Below are positions 14,187-20,396 of a stretch of DNA of 32,000 bases, piece by piece. The stretch lies in contig NZ_JANFYN010000001.1 of the NCBI RefSeq assembly GCF_024460475.1, forward strand, positions 20,946 through 52,945. Reading direction: 5' to 3'. The notes beneath the pieces are model-generated. The model made no database searches, had not been told where the DNA came from, and saw only the letters and a list, made by a program, of their open reading frames with translations. The number at the start of each line of letters is the position of its first letter. Positions within the stretch are counted from its first letter, which is position 1. Position numbers and translations under genes: made by a program. The DNA is from Holdemanella sp. MSK.7.32 (GTDB taxonomy: Bacteria > Bacillota_I > Bacilli_A > Erysipelotrichales > Erysipelotrichaceae).

Positions 14187-14217
14187 TTGATATTTTATAT
14201 CGTATTTTGATATTTTA
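14187..14217 (-). promoter_or_regulatory. direct repeat TTGATATTTTA x2 (20-bp spacing) upstream of the XRE gene, possible operator/promoter
   Basis: Exact 11-bp copies at 14187-14197 and 14207-14217. The second copy overlaps the Dam stop codon. Confidence 0.3.
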
Positions 14218-14970
14218 CTTGTAATTTCTTATAATCAATTCTTTATATCTAGAAACGCCATCTTTAACAAGATTGTTATTTCTTTCAACCTCTTCTATAT
14301 AAAAGTCTGAATACAACTCTCTTATGAATGCACAATCATTATAGGAAAGAATAAACCTACCTTTTATATCTCTTAGAATATCTCTTAATTTAATATGATC
14401 TTCTTCGTCAAACAAGTTGCCATAATATTTTTCAGTCTTATAATATGGTGGATCTAAATAAAACAGAGCATTGTTTCTATCATATACTTTAATAAGATTA
14501 TCATAGCTTTTGTTTTCTATGACAACTCTATTTAAACGTTTACTGATTTCAGGAAGCATATTCACCGAATACGATATATTTTTAGCGTTTGTTCCATATG
14601 TTTTTCCGTCAGCCCCAAAAGATACCTTTATTAAATATAGAAAGCGTGCTGCTCTTTGAATATCAGTTAATCCATTGATATTCATTTGTTCTTTATAGTT
14701 AATAAAAATCTCTCTAGAATTTAATAAGAATTCACATTCTCTTTGGACTTCCTGAGCGTGGTATTTAACGCATCTATATAGGTTAACTAAATCACCATTT
14801 AGATCGTTATATACCTCTAATTGCTTACTGTTATGTTCTTTTGCAAATAATACCCATCCTGCACCTCCAAACACTTCGATATAGCGTGATGGTTGCTCTT
14901 TAGGAAACCTGCTTAATATCTCTTTTCTAAGTAACTTTTTACCGCCAATCCATGGTATAAAACTATTCAT
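14215..14970 (-). CDS. dam: Dam-type (D12 class) N6-adenine DNA methyltransferase
   Basis: N-terminal FIPWIGGKK and the catalytic DPPY (YLDPPYY). The preferred start is ATG 14970 (MNSFIPW) with GGAAGGAG upstream. The ORF track extends to 15000. Confidence 0.9.
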   Translation of the reverse strand: MNSFIPWIGGKKLLRKEILSRFPKEQPSRYIEVFGGAGWVLFAKEHNSKQLEVYNDLNGDLVNLYRCVKYHAQEVQRECEFLLNSREIFINYKEQMNINGLTDIQRAARFLYLIKVSFGADGKTYGTNAKNISYSVNMLPEISKRLNRVVIENKSYDNLIKVYDRNNALFYLDPPYYKTEKYYGNLFDEEDHIKLRDILRDIKGRFILSYNDCAFIRELYSDFYIEEVERNNNLVKDGVSRYKELIIRNYK

Positions 14971-15046
14971 TTTTAATCTCTCCTTCCACACAAAGGGCAT
15001 TGCTATGAAAAGGAGAGTAGGATAGCATTTCCTACTATCCTACAAA

Positions 15047-16024
15047 TTACTTACACAAACTATTTACAATGCTTTGAATTGCATCATAGTTATACCCAGC
15101 AGCTGTTAAACGAGCCTTACGATCGGCTCCGTTTCCCCAATTACCAGCAATAACCTCTTTAGCAATTGCTTCGTTGGATTTACCAGGCTTTGATCCATAT
15201 GATTTTTCATTAACTTTTGCTTGAACTGCATCATAATTGTAACCTGCGCTAGTTAAACGATTCTTACGATCAGCTCCGTTTCCCCACTTACCAGCGATGA
15301 CTTCATCTGCCAACTGATCAATGGTTTTTGTTGGCTTTGGAGCAGGGTTTGAATTTCCTACCATTTGATTTACTAATGATTGAATAGCATTATAATCGTA
15401 ACCTGCGCTAGTTAAACGGTTCTTGCGATCAGCTCCGTTTCCCCACTTACCAGCAACCACCTCTCTTGCAACTTCCTCACTGGATTTTTTGTTACCTGTA
15501 GATGGTGTAGATGGAGATTCAGCTCCATTCATCATTTGATCATACCATTGTTGAGCTTTTTGCATATAAGCATCTCTTTGCTCATCCTGTAATCGACCAG
15601 GGCAAGATGTAGCTGCAAAATGATTATGAGGGAATACATTTACTTTCCATTGAGGACGTCCCAATCCATAATACTTACATAGCGCTGCAACTAAATGAGC
15701 TCCTGCATCTAAGCATGCTTCACTAATATATCCGCCTTCTTTATTAGCATGTTCAATTCCAATACTTGAACAGTTAGCATCCCAGTTACTTGCATGCCAT
15801 GCTGTATCACTATCCCAAACCAACTGTCCAATACGACCTGAAGATTCAACTTGATAGTGTGCTGAAGCTGGTCTGTTTTGCCATACAGAATAACATCCTT
15901 CTACAGTTAAATCGCCTGCGTTATAATGAATGATAATTTTATTGATTTTTCGTCCTGAACGCCCACTAGTATAGTGCGTGTTCAGGATTTTATTTACATC
16001 AGCATTTAAGTTTTTCCAATCCAT
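15047..16024 (-). CDS. endolysin: N-acetylmuramoyl-L-alanine amidase (Amidase_2/PGRP) with three CW_7 cell-wall-binding repeats
   Basis: 325 aa with an N-terminal amidase domain (IIHYNAG, HY, HNHFAATSCPG). The C-terminus carries three copies of AGKWGNGADRKNRLTSAGY(D/N)Y(N/D)A(I/V)Q. Confidence 0.9.
   Translation of the reverse strand: MDWKNLNADVNKILNTHYTSGRSGRKINKIIIHYNAGDLTVEGCYSVWQNRPASAHYQVESSGRIGQLVWDSDTAWHASNWDANCSSIGIEHANKEGGYISEACLDAGAHLVAALCKYYGLGRPQWKVNVFPHNHFAATSCPGRLQDEQRDAYMQKAQQWYDQMMNGAESPSTPSTGNKKSSEEVAREVVAGKWGNGADRKNRLTSAGYDYNAIQSLVNQMVGNSNPAPKPTKTIDQLADEVIAGKWGNGADRKNRLTSAGYNYDAVQAKVNEKSYGSKPGKSNEAIAKEVIAGNWGNGADRKARLTAAGYNYDAIQSIVNSLCK
15050..15484 (-). repeat. three tandem CW_7-encoding DNA repeats inside the endolysin gene
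   Basis: Near-identical stretches such as GCTCCGTTTCCCCA(A/C)TTACCAGC recur three times at roughly 130-155 bp spacing. Confidence 0.8.
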
Positions 16025-16556: not shown

Positions 16557-16583
16557 AAAAGGTAACGAAATTAATCGTTACCT
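16557..16583 (-). terminator. rho-independent terminator at the RT gene end
   Basis: Minus strand has a 9-bp stem AGGTAACGA/TCGTTACCT that contains the RT stop codon, followed by TTTTAATTATGTTTT. Confidence 0.6.
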
Positions 16584-17725
16584 TGATTTCTAGTCAGTAC
16601 AAACCAACCATCTATTCCTTTTTCATAATCACCAAATATTTCTGTTTTTAATGCGTAACTATTACAATGCTTCAACAGTCCAAAATATGAATCAACTACT
16701 CGTGTAGCGTGTTCTAAAGTACAATCTCCTTCATTGTATCGTTTCATCACGCCTTTTAAGTTCCTTTTAATTCTTAAGGAGGTGCTTTTCCTTATTTTAA
16801 TATGTGTAGGCCATAAGCGAAAACCACAAAATTCAATTCCTTGATTGATTGGTCTAATACAGGTCTTTTGATTCATTTCCATTTTCATGACATCATTCGC
16901 GAACTTTTCTAGTTTTTGATGCCATTCTTTTATTTGTTTCTTATCATCAGAAAGCACCACAATATCATCCTGATAACGTATATAACACTTGATTCCTAAT
17001 GTCCTTTTAGCATATTGGTCTATCTGGTCATTGTAAACATTCGCTAACATCTGTGAAATCAAAGCGCCCACTGGCATTCCTTTATCATATAAACGTTCGC
17101 TCATTTCAACATCTTCAGGACGCATGCCTCTAGGCAAACCAAAAGGCATATCAGGGCTTTCTATGCGGGTTGCAAGCCATCTAACAACACGATCATCCTT
17201 AATTTTCTTCTTCAATACATCAATCATAACTTTATGATCTACTCTATAAAAGTATTTGCTAAAGTCTATTTTCAAGTAATACCACTTATTTAAATCGGAT
17301 ACATCTAAACCGTTTTTCAGCTTATTGTATCTTTTACTATTGACCAATTTAAGCCAATAATGCAGCCTTTTAACTGCTGCAATTTGTCCTTTTCCTTTGA
17401 TGCAAGCATAAGAATCCTTGATGTACATCCTAGTAAACATAGGACTTAAAACTTGATAAAACGCCCACTGTTTTATCACTTCAGGAAAGTCTTGAGCAAG
17501 GATCAAACGACACTTTGGTTCGTAAACGTAGAACTCTCTATATTTAGGATAATCAGCAACTTCGCTTCTTAATTCATTTTGAATCTTAACTAGATTCGCT
17601 TCTAGATTTTGGGTAAATATGAGTACATCTTTTCTATATCTTTTGTTTTTACGAGCGTTTAAATAAGCCTTGTATATGTTTTCATCACTAACGATATCGT
17701 CATATACATTCTTTATTTTCGCCAT
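16571..17725 (-). CDS. DGR-type reverse transcriptase
   Basis: YQDD catalytic box (IRYQDDIVVLS). The motif PVGALISQMLANVY contains the SQ signature typical of DGR RTs. The gene is adjacent to the TR array and avd. The preferred start is ATG 17725 (MAKIKNVY) after GGTGA. The ORF track starts at GTG 17734. Confidence 0.92.
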   Translation of the reverse strand: MAKIKNVYDDIVSDENIYKAYLNARKNKRYRKDVLIFTQNLEANLVKIQNELRSEVADYPKYREFYVYEPKCRLILAQDFPEVIKQWAFYQVLSPMFTRMYIKDSYACIKGKGQIAAVKRLHYWLKLVNSKRYNKLKNGLDVSDLNKWYYLKIDFSKYFYRVDHKVMIDVLKKKIKDDRVVRWLATRIESPDMPFGLPRGMRPEDVEMSERLYDKGMPVGALISQMLANVYNDQIDQYAKRTLGIKCYIRYQDDIVVLSDDKKQIKEWHQKLEKFANDVMKMEMNQKTCIRPINQGIEFCGFRLWPTHIKIRKSTSLRIKRNLKGVMKRYNEGDCTLEHATRVVDSYFGLLKHCNSYALKTEIFGDYEKGIDGWFVLTRNQGND

Positions 17726-17886
17726 GATCATCACCTAATTTTTAAGATGCTTAACGGAGTTCATTTAACATTACTATCGGTTTTCATCTTTATTTATTTT
17801 TTTGCTTATTCAGCATGGAATTAGACTCCTTTATTCCCTTGATTTGAAATGATAGACGTATCCATCATATACCTAATTGCAAGAGC

Positions 17887-18000
17887 AGAGCGGAGCGAAA
17901 ACCTGCATTGTGATTCGAATTGGAGCGTGGGTCATTCAAGTTTACAGCGAACACGCCTGCATTGCTACCATTATCCCAATTGCCACCACGAAAAGGCAAA
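17887..18000 (-). repeat. DGR template repeat cassette TR1 (RT-proximal)
   Basis: Minus strand reads CCT TTT CGT GGT GGC AAT TGG GAT AAT GGT AGC AAT GCA GGC GTG TTC GCT GTA AAC TTG AAT GAC CCA CGC TCC AAT TCG AAT CAC AAT GCA GGT TTT CGC TCC GCT. It has 8 AAY codons. It matches VR blocks 1-2 with adenine-only differences. Confidence 0.88.
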
Positions 18001-18035
18001 TCATATAGTCCAATCCCATTACTCTTTATAGGGTT

Positions 18036-18146
18036 AGAGCGGAGCGAAAACCTCTATCATTGTCAGAGTTGGAGCGTGGGTTGTTGAGATTCAAAGCGAA
18101 CACACCTGCATTCGAATAGTTCCAAAAAGCGCCACCACGAAAAGGT
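18036..18146 (-). repeat. DGR template repeat cassette TR2
   Basis: Same 26-codon register between the anchors. Variable blocks are GCT TTT TGG AAC TAT TCG AAT / TTG AAT CTC AAC AAC / AAC TCT GAC AAT GAT AGA, with 7 AAY codons. It matches VR block 3 with adenine-only differences. A TGA lies two codons upstream of the 5' anchor, so it is non-coding. Confidence 0.85.
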
Positions 18147-18174
18147 CTTCATAATAATCTAATCCCATAAGGAT

Positions 18175-18292
18175 AAAGCGGAGCGAAAACCTAAATCGTC
18201 CCAAGTATTGGAGCGTGGGTTGTTCAAATTCAAAGCGAACACGCCTGCATTGCTAGAATTATTGAAGCCGCCACCACGAAAAGGCAAACGCT
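18175..18292 (-). repeat. DGR template repeat cassette TR3 (avd-proximal)
   Basis: Same register. Variable blocks are GGC TTC AAT AAT TCT AGC AAT / TTG AAT TTG AAC AAC / AAT ACT TGG GAC GAT TTA, with 7 AAY codons. Its flanks AGCGTTTGCC and GCTTT are identical to the VR flanks. A TAG lies three codons upstream of the anchor. Confidence 0.85.
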
Positions 18293-18324
18293 AATAGCCT
18301 AATCCCAAAATAGCATAAAAGAAT

Positions 18325-18340
18325 AGAGTGGAGCGAAAAA
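18325..18340 (-). repeat. truncated copy of the cassette 3' end motif
   Basis: AGAGTGGAGCGAAAAA versus AGAGCGGAGCGAAAAC at the cassette ends. It lies just downstream of the avd stop and marks the edge of the tandem array. Confidence 0.6.
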
Positions 18341-18355
18341 GGGCTCACAATTCAT

Positions 18356-18856
18356 CTAATCCTTATGACTTTTTTGACATGTATAACAAAGAGATTTACC
18401 AAAATTTTTCATTGAATATTCATAAGACTTAGGAGTTATTCTTGTGCCACATTTCTCACAAACATATGGTTTATCAACAGCTTTATTTCCTGTTTTTTCT
18501 TTTTCAGCCTTAATCCAACCACCTAACATCTTGCCGACTTTATCTAATCTTCTAGACATTTCCATATAGTGGTTTTCGCCTTTAAAATATTGCAAGTCAA
18601 ATGCTAATCTTACATAAACCTTTAATACAGCTAGTTCTACATCCATTTTTTCAAGTGTTGTAGTCTTAGCGTATTTTTTATTAGCTGCAATTGCATATTC
18701 AAGAACTGAATCCATCTTTTTTTTAATATCTTGAACTAAAGAAAATTTTTGACTCTTTGGAAAATGATCCAACAATGGATAGGCATATAGCAACATATCA
18801 TAAACCTCCTGTTGTATGATCAGTTGCGTTTCATACGAGCCTAATTGATTATCCAT
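18356..18856 (-). CDS. avd: DGR accessory variability determinant (Avd, four-helix-bundle / 23S rRNA-IVS family) with C-terminal CxxC-CxxC zinc-ribbon extension
   Basis: The preferred start is ATG 18856 (MDNQLGSYE) with GAGGTGG upstream. The ORF-track N-terminal extension overlaps terminator hairpins. LLDHFPKSQKFSLVQDIKKKMDSVLEYAIAAN fits the Avd/IVS pattern. The tail is YVCEKCGTRITPKSYEYSMKNFGKSLCYTCQ. Confidence 0.85.
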   Translation of the reverse strand: MDNQLGSYETQLIIQQEVYDMLLYAYPLLDHFPKSQKFSLVQDIKKKMDSVLEYAIAANKKYAKTTTLEKMDVELAVLKVYVRLAFDLQYFKGENHYMEMSRRLDKVGKMLGGWIKAEKEKTGNKAVDKPYVCEKCGTRITPKSYEYSMKNFGKSLCYTCQKSHKD

Positions 18857-18900: not shown

Positions 18901-18940
18901 AATAAAAAAAATAATCCCACCAGCTTAATCGCTGGTGGGA
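18901..18940 (-). terminator. strong rho-independent terminator between DGR target gene and avd
   Basis: Perfect 10-bp stem TCCCACCAGC/GCTGGTGGGA (18915-18924 and 18931-18940) with a 6-nt loop, followed on the minus strand by TTATTTTTTTTATT. Confidence 0.75.
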
Positions 18941-18984: not shown

Positions 18985-20064
18985 TTACAGACCGACAAAA
19001 GCGGAGCGAAAACCTCTAACATTGTCAGAGTAGGAGCGCGGGTCATGCAAGTCGACAGCGAACACGCCTGCAAGGCTACCATCATCCCAAGAGCCACCAC
19101 GAAAAGGCAAACGCTCTCCCTTATTTCTCATATAGATATAATCTCCATGATTTGCTTTTGTTCCATCAGGATAAATTGCCAAAGCCTTTAAGATTTCAGG
19201 CGGGTTGATACTTCCATCTGCTGTCATATCTTCAAATTGTCCTGCAGCATACGGATCACCATTAGTCTGTTGATGTGCTAGAGTTGTTACTAATTTAGGC
19301 ATTCCTTTCGATGTGTTTTCAGTACCTGGATCTACTGTATAATCGAACTTTAATGTATTAGCAGATTTTGGCGCAACCAAGTTTCCACTCTTATCAATCG
19401 CTTTCCAATGGCTAGAATTTTCAGCCATATTTGCATCACATGCTGCATTATTATCAGCAATAACTTGGATTTCACCATCAACTAATCGAAGTCCTCCAAC
19501 CCATTCCCATACATTTCCATTCAAATCAAAGATACCTGAATTACTTCCATCATGTGCCCATGTAACTGGGCCTGAACCTGTTCCAACTCTACCTGTTTTT
19601 CCATCATATTTATAAGTTTCAACACCTTTTTCATGCGGATATGATACATCGCTTCCGTAATTGTTGTTGCCTCTTGGGAAGTATCCGTTCTTTTTACACC
19701 ACAAAGCAATCGCAGCCCATTCAGCATTTGTCATTAAATGCCATCCTTTACCTTTGTTTTCACAAGCTTTTCTTGCTGTATCAAAATCAATATAAACTTT
19801 TGGATCTTGCATTGGTAAAGAGTATGCTCGATCATTCACTACGATATTTTGATACTTACTAATATAAATTTCATCTTTTTCTACACCATTAACAATAAAG
19901 GCTGGATGTACTGAATTAGAACCACCTTCAATTACATCTGAAATTTTAAATTTAGGAATTCTAACCATGATTGACGGATTTCCTAAATCATCAAATAATA
20001 CTGTATTTTTCCCGCCAGTCGCTGCTTCAACCGCTAACTTGATTGCATCAAAATTTGTCTCCAT
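18985..20064 (-). CDS. DGR target protein: phage tail fibre/receptor-binding protein with FGE-sulfatase (C-type lectin fold) domain
   Basis: HLMTNAEWAAIA, GNVWEWVGG, and C-terminal RGGSW...GFRSA are hallmarks of the FGE/CLec fold used by DGR targets. The VR occupies the last ~38 codons. The preferred start is ATG 20064 (METNFDAI), overlapping the upstream stop (TAATG). The ORF track starts at 20082. Confidence 0.9.
   Translation of the reverse strand: METNFDAIKLAVEAATGGKNTVLFDDLGNPSIMVRIPKFKISDVIEGGSNSVHPAFIVNGVEKDEIYISKYQNIVVNDRAYSLPMQDPKVYIDFDTARKACENKGKGWHLMTNAEWAAIALWCKKNGYFPRGNNNYGSDVSYPHEKGVETYKYDGKTGRVGTGSGPVTWAHDGSNSGIFDLNGNVWEWVGGLRLVDGEIQVIADNNAACDANMAENSSHWKAIDKSGNLVAPKSANTLKFDYTVDPGTENTSKGMPKLVTTLAHQQTNGDPYAAGQFEDMTADGSINPPEILKALAIYPDGTKANHGDYIYMRNKGERLPFRGGSWDDGSLAGVFAVDLHDPRSYSDNVRGFRSAFVGL
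18998..19115 (-). repeat. DGR variable repeat (VR)
   Basis: Same anchors and 26-codon register as TR1-3, but only one AAY codon remains. Differences from the best-matching cassette segments fall only at template adenines. Confidence 0.9.
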
Positions 20065-20396
20065 TATTCTTCTACCCCCCACAATGTAATATCCACTTTT
20101 TTAATATCAAAAGGAACTGCTACCTTGTTGAATTTTGTGTGCCCTTCTTCATCCACACCATCTTCTACATATTGATATTCTCTAGCTGAAATGTCGATTT
20201 GAGCCACATATTTATTCGCTAGTCCCATGCACAAACATCCAAATTCATCCATACAAATATCGATATGCATTGGATCATCACGTTCATACTTGGCTAGATT
20301 CAACATTAATTCATCATTGAAAATGATTTTATTTCCAATGATTTCATAGTCAATCTTTGCTCCTTCGTTCTTATTGATTATCTTTGCACCATTCAT
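20064..20396 (-). CDS. phage hypothetical protein in tail-fibre module
   Basis: 110-aa ORF translationally coupled on both sides (TAATG overlaps). No recognisable motif. Confidence 0.6.
   Translation of the reverse strand: MNGAKIINKNEGAKIDYEIIGNKIIFNDELMLNLAKYERDDPMHIDICMDEFGCLCMGLANKYVAQIDISAREYQYVEDGVDEEGHTKFNKVAVPFDIKKVDITLWGVEE

Follow-up and report, generated by a model that had tools for sequence, protein, structure and literature searches.

A tandem array of template cassettes and mosaic variable repeats in a prophage-borne diversity-generating retroelement of Holdemanella sp. MSK.7.32

A diversity-generating retroelement (DGR) is encoded on the minus strand of a 32,000-nucleotide stretch of the genome of Holdemanella sp. 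MSK.7.32 (contig NZ_JANFYN010000001.1, positions 20,946 to 52,945), hereafter called the window. Here we report that its template is best explained as a tandem library of three distinct, silent template repeat (TR) cassettes and a stub, which together serve a single variable repeat (VR) in a tail-fibre-like target gene. Comparison with related loci makes it probable, at roughly 0.8 by our estimate, that several cassettes feed the one VR and produce mosaic VRs.

A sequence-only reading of the window had proposed three tandem units, in register with the VR, between avd and the reverse transcriptase (RT) gene, and the anchors that delimit these units bear it out. The 5' anchor CCTTTTCGTGGTGGC occurs exactly four times (17982-17996, 18131-18145, 18270-18284 and 19093-19107), as does the 3' anchor GGTTTTCGCTCCGCT (17889-17903, 18038-18052, 18177-18191 and 19000-19014). 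The counts were made over the whole 32-kb window and compared with 100 shuffles, of which none (0/100) gave counts as high. The result is four units of 108 nt (36 codons), namely the VR and three TRs in register with it, the latter spaced by 149 and 139 nt. Two internal anchors, GCAGGCGTGTTCGCT and CCACGCTCC, are common to all cassettes and the VR and divide the variable blocks, while TR3 and the VR have 8 additional nt of 5' flank (agcgtttg) in common. The avd stop codon (18356) and the RT start codon (17725) lie where they had been placed, and no minus-strand open reading frame (ORF) of at least 50 aa spans the array, which is non-coding. The TRs have 8, 7 and 7 AAY codons and 24, 21 and 21 adenines, the VR 1 and 13. 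Differences among the cassettes are not confined to adenines; each of the three variable blocks has many at other positions. What had been described as a truncated end motif is the remnant of a fourth cassette, which is intact in five related loci (L002, L008, L022, L007 and L023); in this stub the 5' anchor is joined to the 3' anchor via TTTTCG, which is common to both.

The VR of the window is itself a mosaic. Dynamic-programming assignment derives positions 1-63 from TR1 and positions 64-108 from TR2, with 12 adenine and 0 non-adenine differences. TR1, the best single TR, leaves 13 adenine and 7 non-adenine mismatches over the whole VR, all 7 of them in the last block, to which TR2 has 2 adenine and 0 non-adenine mismatches. 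In the TR1-derived segment 18 sites are incompatible with TR2 and 11 with TR3; in the TR2-derived segment 7 are incompatible with TR1 and 8 with TR3. The crossover maps to positions 63-78 (approximately 19031-19044), an interval holding the CCACGCTCC anchor. TR3 is absent from this VR but acts as a donor in relatives.

Relatives were collected by protein-guided scans and by look-up of exact proteins, which gave approximately 30 independent loci from isolates, metagenome-assembled genomes and human-gut metagenome contigs (L numbers denote loci and P numbers target proteins). They include a Holdemanella metagenome-assembled genome, Eubacterium sp. TM05-53 and the complete Amedibacterium intestinale genome (L007); a megablast search of the DGR region against GenBank phages gave no match. 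An array is present in all of these loci, with two (2 loci), three (23 loci) or four (5 loci) cassettes. The two-cassette arrays (L001 and L029) are TR3/TR2 hybrids, the outcome expected of unequal crossing-over at an anchor.

Donors were assigned for 20 distinct in-frame VRs with an array on the same contig, the window (W) included. Single cassettes account for 10 of the 20, with TR1 as the donor in L005 and L029, TR2 in L016, L024, L032, L033, L035 and L036, and TR3 in L002 and L018; TR2 is the sole donor of the grouped loci L024/25/26, and TR3 that of L002/L008, with 7 adenine and 0 other differences. The other 10 VRs are mosaic (W, L001, L006, L007, L017, L019, L023, L031, L034 and L037), two of them with three segments (L006, TR1/TR3/TR2; L017, TR2/TR3/TR2), and the VR of the complete Amedibacterium intestinale genome is a TR2/TR1 mosaic. 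TR3 is a partial donor in L006, L017, L028 and L034. With these donors, substitutions affect 38% of adenines (167 of 437; T 50, C 66, G 51) and 0.4% of other bases (7 of 1723); if each VR were held to one donor, 100 non-adenine mismatches would have to be accepted. Each mosaic segment carries at least 2 adenine mutations and at least 3 sites that rule out every other cassette, and in a null simulation of single-donor VRs mosaics were called in 0 of 3000 cases. Breakpoints fall nearly always within the common anchors GCAGGCGTGTTCGCT and CCACGCTCC, in stretches of 9-18 identical nt, the sole exception being L017. Further mosaics were found at the protein level among members of the target cluster (P0009, P0010, P0012, P0032 and P0039), and block 1 of the fourth cassette is present in the VRs of P0021 and P0025, from the Amedibacterium lineage.

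Cassette shuffling at the common anchors, which the sequence-only reading had offered as a possibility, is therefore borne out by the mosaic VR of the window and by the 10 mosaics among the 20 distinct VRs. That reading had also allowed for TR2 and TR3 being reserved for other targets, or for one cassette alone being active. Depending on the relative, the one VR derives from TR1, from TR2 or from TR3, so that TR2 and TR3 are not set aside for other targets, and all cassettes, not one alone, leave RT-type footprints. As far as comparison of sequences can demonstrate it, the one VR receives copies of all cassettes, made with adenine-specific mutagenesis.

Two side observations concern individual units. 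One non-adenine site of the L017 VR (L017:2750-2857) has changed from T to A. In the Eubacterium sp. TM05-53 lineage the fourth cassette (L002:5301-5408) is adenine-poor (GLATTTS / LLVRW / DSVDVV) and its anchors are altered too; no VRs derived from it were seen among the relatives, and it looks like a decayed or once-mutagenised unit.

The template slots are conserved, as against the VRs. TR1 is identical in 16 of the 23 three-cassette loci, as is TR3, and TR2 has two main alleles, whereas 17 of 18 VRs in three-cassette loci are distinct; over all 28 VR-carrying loci there are 25 distinct VRs. Two loci from consecutive ENA analyses, L028 and L034, are identical over 3399 nt of flanking sequence that takes in avd and the array, versus 32 differences in the 108 nt of the VR, where the donor of block 1 differs as well. 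This contrast suggests recent activity and resembles the footprint of mutagenic retrohoming. Single-base indels were noted in three VRs, with +1 in block 1 of L028 (L028:2252-2359) and L030 (L030:2250-2357) and a 1-nt loss in block 2 of L022 (L022:2746-2853). They cause frameshifts that truncate or alter the target protein (333 aa in L028, 335 aa in L030), and could be errors of the RT or of integration, or assembly errors.

Assembly chimeras were considered as the source of the mosaics and rejected on the basis of isolate genomes and of mosaic proteins that recur. Two genomes of isolates have mosaic VRs, those of Holdemanella sp. MSK.7.32, whose protein MCQ4802881.1 is identical to the target protein of the window, and of Amedibacterium intestinale, which is complete. 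Two looked-up mosaic target proteins, P0001 (that of L031) and P0002 (which carries the VR of L019), are each found on 3 contigs, and TR arrays with the same anchors were assembled identically in more than 20 assemblies.

The features of the element are listed in Table 1. On the minus strand their order is target gene, terminator, avd, stub, TR3-TR2-TR1, a spacer of approximately 160 nt, RT and a second terminator-like hairpin. The first terminator sets the target gene apart from the avd-TR-RT unit, and the only terminators seen flank the avd-to-RT unit, none lying inside it.

Table 1. Features of the DGR locus, with positions in the window
Feature	Position	Strand	Remarks
DGR target gene	18985..20082	-	ORF; 359 aa from ATG at 20064, 365 aa from GTG at 20082
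VR	19000..19107	-	36 codons; positions 1-63 TR1-derived, 64-108 TR2-derived
Hairpin TTGCCAC-GTAA-GTGGCAA	18945..18962	-	37 nt downstream of VR
Intrinsic terminator 3' of target gene	18915..18940	-	10-bp stem with 7 GC pairs, then T-run
avd	18356..18856	-	166 aa; Pfam bAvd
Stub (collapsed fourth cassette)	18327..18341	-	15 nt; 3-mismatch copy of 3' anchor
TR3 cassette	18177..18284	-	GFNNSSN / LNLNN / NTWDDL; anchor-delimited, 108 nt
TR2 cassette	18038..18145	-	AFWNYSN / LNLNN / NSDNDR; anchor-delimited, 108 nt
TR1 cassette	17889..17996	-	NWDNGSN / VNLND / NSNHNA; anchor-delimited, 108 nt
Spacer RNA between TR1 and RT	17745..17885	-	Rfam RT-14 RNA (RF02921); one copy for the array
DGR RT	16571..17734	-	384 aa from ATG at 17725 (alternative GTG at 17734); Pfam RVT_1; VGALISQ, YQDD
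Terminator-like hairpin after RT	16559..16584	-	end of avd-TR array-RT unit

The RT belongs to the DGR clade according to its Pfam family, its motifs and its best PDB match, the Bordetella DGR RT 8ub7_A (E=7.1e-40); RTs of group II introns and retrons matched at 1e-9 or weaker. The [ILV]GxxxSQ motif is typical of DGRs. The accessory protein Avd was recognized by Pfam bAvd above the cut-off (2.2e-27) and by the PDB entries 4dwl (Bbp7) and 8ub7_B. It has a C-terminal extension of approximately 45 aa with a CxxC-x17-CxxC pattern (YVCEKCG...CYTCQK; residues ~118-166, 18359-18505 on the minus strand), which is probably a zinc ribbon and has weak similarity to zinc-finger chains in the PDB. The extension is found in all multi-cassette lineages checked (L002, L006 and L022), and the Avd proteins of four single-TR relatives lack it, ending just after GRMLGGW.KS; its presence alongside the TR array may be functional or coincidental.

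The target protein matches Pfam FGE-sulfatase (2e-08) and PDB 5vf4_A (4.6e-71), and its gene follows baseplate genes. The VR spans codons 36 to 4 before the stop codon, within this C-terminal ligand-binding fold, and the protein is probably a phage receptor-binding protein with the VR at its C-terminus. Homology between the TRs and the VR stops at the common anchor, and distinct initiation of mutagenic homing sites (IMH versus IMH*) are not definable. The hairpin downstream of the VR has a 7-bp stem, kept in all lineages, and a 4-nt loop (GTAA, GTGA or GCTA); it is a candidate target-recognition hairpin or cruciform of the DGR. A hairpin of the form TTGCCAC-GNNA-GTGGCAA is absent downstream of every one of the TR cassettes.

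The spacer RNA matches Rfam RT-14 (RF02921) over the full model (positions 1-144 of 144) with 69.1 bits, above the gathering threshold of 48.1. Its first ~100 nt are invariant even in a lineage with a 77%-identical RT, and compensatory changes occur in its distal helix. The Rfam entry covers the RNA motif only and says nothing of a position behind a multi-cassette array. A motif, GGGATTRG(R)CTAT, precedes each cassette on the minus strand (18146-18176, 18285-18326 and 17997-18037) and recurs at the end of avd (18356-18380), where it overlaps the stop codon (AAGGATTAGATGAAT). The start of the spacer after TR1 (ATTAGGTATATGAT) is similar to it, and it is kept even in the lineage with the 77%-identical RT; it could represent either an RNA element or the scar left by a duplication. 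Predicted duplexes between the inter-cassette spacers that carry it and the spacer RNA scored just 0.4-2.8 standard deviations above shuffles and were not used.

Baseplate genes lie upstream of the DGR and holin and endolysin genes downstream, and the element is therefore prophage-borne. The downstream genes (14215-15000 and 15047-16024, both on the minus strand) comprise a holin-like ORF, an endolysin and a 261-aa ORF, all ordinary prophage cargo. The endolysin combines Amidase_2 with three CW_7-type repeats (GKWGNGADRKNRL...), and the DPPY motif of the 261-aa ORF suggests a DNA adenine methyltransferase.

The gene order is that of the canonical DGR of Bordetella phage BPP-1 (target/VR - avd - TR - spacer - RT). 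The two also have in common a homologous RT, Avd, a C-terminal VR in an FGE-sulfatase/C-type-lectin-like protein, adenine-specific changes and a phage tail-fibre context, and here too a hairpin, as a candidate counterpart, follows the VR. A single TR per VR is typical of DGRs, although not strictly defining, and here the element departs from the canonical type, with three full cassettes and a stub in the window and 2-4 cassettes in relatives, and with three to four distinct tandem TRs, where the canonical type has one, that all feed one VR. It also differs in its frequent mosaic VRs, in having one spacer RNA per array and in the CxxC...CxxC extension of Avd. The four closest GenBank phages (BalMu-1, Saumur, Dulem virus 37 and FP_Lagaffe), with RTs 39-42% identical and the same synteny, each have a single TR and one VR.

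The same reading had taken DGRs to be single-TR elements. This holds only in part, since DGRs with more than one TR per RT have been reported in the MetaCSST survey (PMC6642488) and in the zeta crAss-like phage Lera (PMC12386605). In those elements the TRs are either scattered or paired one by one with separate VRs or targets, and no tandem in-register array for one VR and no mosaic VRs were described. Neither tandem TR arrays nor mosaic VRs are described in further surveys (PMC5758913, PMC3521204 and PMC8144416) or in a study of Bacteroides (PMC11601372). No earlier description of a TR array feeding one VR was found in the full-text literature searched, which does not cover many subscription papers, and this absence is no proof.

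Arrays of silent cassettes are known from systems of antigenic variation and antibody diversification, such as pilE/pilS of Neisseria, vlsE/vls of Borrelia and the pseudo-V genes of chicken immunoglobulins (Ig). The DGR array resembles these systems in having silent cassettes, whether adjacent to the single expression site or apart from it, conserved segments that frame variable blocks, and a mosaic expressed copy. They operate by homologous recombination or gene conversion of DNA, with no programmed point mutagenesis. In the DGR an RT-type adenine footprint is found in each transferred segment, and transfer would therefore proceed, unlike in the gene-conversion systems, via RNA and complementary DNA (cDNA).

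The following mechanism would account for these observations. Because terminators lie just before avd and after RT, one transcript would extend from avd through the whole array and the one RT-14-type spacer RNA to RT. All cassettes have an identical 3' anchor, GGTTTTCGCTCC(GCT), and therefore any of them should be usable for cDNA synthesis and 3' integration. One spacer would serve all cassettes, possibly because each ends in GGUUUUCGCUCC, paired with an invariant segment of the spacer; RNAalifold pairs the TR 3' anchor with the spacer segment GGAGUCUAAUUCC, a hypothetical interaction that covariation cannot test because both sides are invariant. In Bordetella phage BPP-1, at least 8 bp of identity is enough for 5' cDNA integration (PMC3240598), and following this rule 5' integration would resolve at any common stretch of at least 8 nt. 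The next round of homing would then in many cases replace only the 3' part of the VR, and older blocks from another cassette would stay in place. Successive homing of this kind, with the 5' junction at an internal anchor, is the route to mosaics that we tentatively favour. The hairpin occurs only after the VR, and the cassettes would therefore normally be protected from overwriting. Each cassette fixes other non-adenine scaffold residues (xWDxGSx, AFWxYSx, GFxxSSx and so on), and cassette choice together with mixing would give 3x3x3 block combinations, or more with four cassettes. A single read-through cDNA with loop-out was considered as the sole route to mosaics, and was rejected because both donor orders occur.

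Several loci show rearranged units. The TR3 slot of L014 (L014:756-863) is an adenine-mutagenised copy of TR2 (8 adenine, 0 other differences), and in the TR3 slot of L005 (L005:5452-5559) the same holds for block 1 only, which derives from TR2 block 1 (4 adenine, 0 other). Template slots are thus themselves open to overwriting, whether through mis-targeted homing or through gene conversion from VR to TR. In L003 (L003:2560-2720) the 5' flank of the target gene is joined straight to TR3 and the TR3 3' flank, and avd is missing. P0034 (362 aa, on 4 contigs) is a target protein that ends in unmutated TR1 and TR1 flank (LLLQLGI). Both would be deletions by recombination between VR and TR, or assembly collapses; if real, they inactivate the DGR.

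Mosaics could also form within the cDNA. The RT would jump between cassettes, on the same or another RNA, at identical anchors, and the cDNA would be chimeric before homing, as in retroviral copy-choice; we regard this as possible although doubtful. It agrees with breakpoints in anchors of 9-18 identical nt, with adenine mutations in every segment of each mosaic and with all cassettes probably lying on one RNA without internal terminators, and the three segments of L006 and L017, as well as the microhomology at 82/83 in L017, are easier to obtain in one event. However, block 1 comes from the upstream cassette in approximately 6 cases and from the downstream cassette in approximately 11, so that a simple forward jump is insufficient and backward or intermolecular switches are needed. 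Alternatively, cassettes home whole, and mosaics come from homologous recombination between VR alleles of co-resident phages or from gene conversion between VR and TR. The hybrid arrays of L001 and L029, the target fusions of L003 (to TR3, with avd deleted) and P0034 (to TR1), the mutagenised TR2 sequence in the TR3 slots of L014 and L005, and the existence of unmutated blocks, such as block 1 of L001, all speak for recombination of DNA. Anchors of 9-18 bp are nevertheless very short for RecA-type recombination, yet satisfy the at least 8 bp needed for DGR cDNA integration (PMC3240598). Moreover, mosaicism in half of the VRs would demand frequent recombination, while TR arrays are intact in most loci, and conversion of a VR by a TR would bring in unmutated blocks, whereas every mosaic segment has adenine mutations. 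We consider this route rather unlikely. Successive homing, template switching by the RT and DNA recombination are not separated by the present data, because no pair of VRs has a common block, the donor orders exclude only read-through with loop-out, and DNA recombination does occur.

Two further explanations were considered. If this were a multi-target element, TR1 would serve the adjacent VR, and TR2 and TR3 target genes elsewhere. DGRs with several TR-VR pairs have indeed been reported (PMC6642488; PMC12386605), and the scan for other units covered the 32-kb window and the 13-kb loci but not the rest of the host genome. Within that range no other anchor-bearing unit was found, and the adjacent VR is wholly derived from TR2 in L016, L024, L033, L036 and others, wholly from TR3 in L002 and L018, and partly from TR2 in the window. 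This explanation is very improbable and, as an exclusive one, already contradicted; remote VRs would add to the library reading, not replace it. The units might on the other hand be inert, as duplicated junk or fossil VRs, with the mosaics being assembly chimeras of mixed VR populations. Most related loci do come from metagenome assemblies, the frameshifted VRs of L028, L030 and L022 might be assembly errors, and the fourth cassette of L002 is adenine-poor and unused. Against this, the cassettes are adenine-rich and constant in sequence across loci, the mosaics occur in the MSK.7.32 isolate, in a complete genome and in two proteins recovered from several contigs each, and the anchors (at most 18 nt) would be below assembler k-mers, the TR arrays that carry the same anchors having been assembled consistently. 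We give it hardly any credence.

Some observations weigh against the library reading and the route favoured for it. The transcription of the array as a single RNA, the site of priming and the way in which mosaics form are inferred from the sequence. Among the 25 distinct VRs there are no pairs with an identical block, and hence no trace of stepwise partial overwriting. The L017 breakpoint at 82/83, in block 3, is outside the long anchors, and its donors have only ~2 nt in common there. Published target hairpins of DGRs have GC-rich stems of 7-10 bp and 4-nt GRNA loops and lie 4-34 nt downstream of the VR (PMC3240598); here there are loops outside the GRNA consensus, and the distance is 37 nt. 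Recombination among the repeats at the DNA level is evident from the hybrid arrays and the target-TR fusions, and the RT may not have been needed for some mosaics, or for unmutated blocks such as block 1 of L001, in which 0 of 7 adenines differ. Finally, the absence of further anchor-bearing units applies to the window and the 13-kb loci, the rest of the MSK.7.32 genome lying outside the search.

A more far-reaching form of the library reading, which we consider speculative and rather doubtful, is that the array is a programmed, evolvable template library, in which switching at anchors gives chimeric cDNAs and mutagenised cDNA or VR sequence is occasionally written back into the slots, as in L014 and L005. 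If true, the element would diversify its target and over time rewrite its own templates, and would combine hypermutation with the retroelement equivalent of antigenic variation from silent cassettes.

In human gut metagenomes the element is common. Its exact Avd sequence is indexed in 444 blocks of the sequence collection searched, and the 90% cluster of the target protein has 1558 members. Mosaic VRs would be scored wrongly or discarded by standard DGR finders built around a single TR for each VR and an upper limit on non-adenine mismatches. With 7-14 non-adenine mismatches to the best single TR, for example, such VRs are above the limit of MetaCSST, which accepts fewer than 4 (PMC6642488). 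Cultured isolates carry the element (Holdemanella sp. MSK.7.32, Amedibacterium intestinale and Eubacterium sp. TM05-53), which makes direct testing possible.

DGRs are understood to vary only the adenine-bearing codons of one fixed template, the other residues of the binding site being frozen. The element described here escapes this limit, as three or four alternative templates with other fixed residues are mixed block by block and then adenine-mutagenised in one receptor-binding gene, and positions that adenine mutagenesis alone can never change do vary. It shows several templates in use by one RT/Avd/spacer module on one target, which bears on template selection and priming, and it also bears on the homology needed for cDNA integration in nature. 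It also suggests that engineered DGR mutagenesis may be carried out with multiplexed templates.

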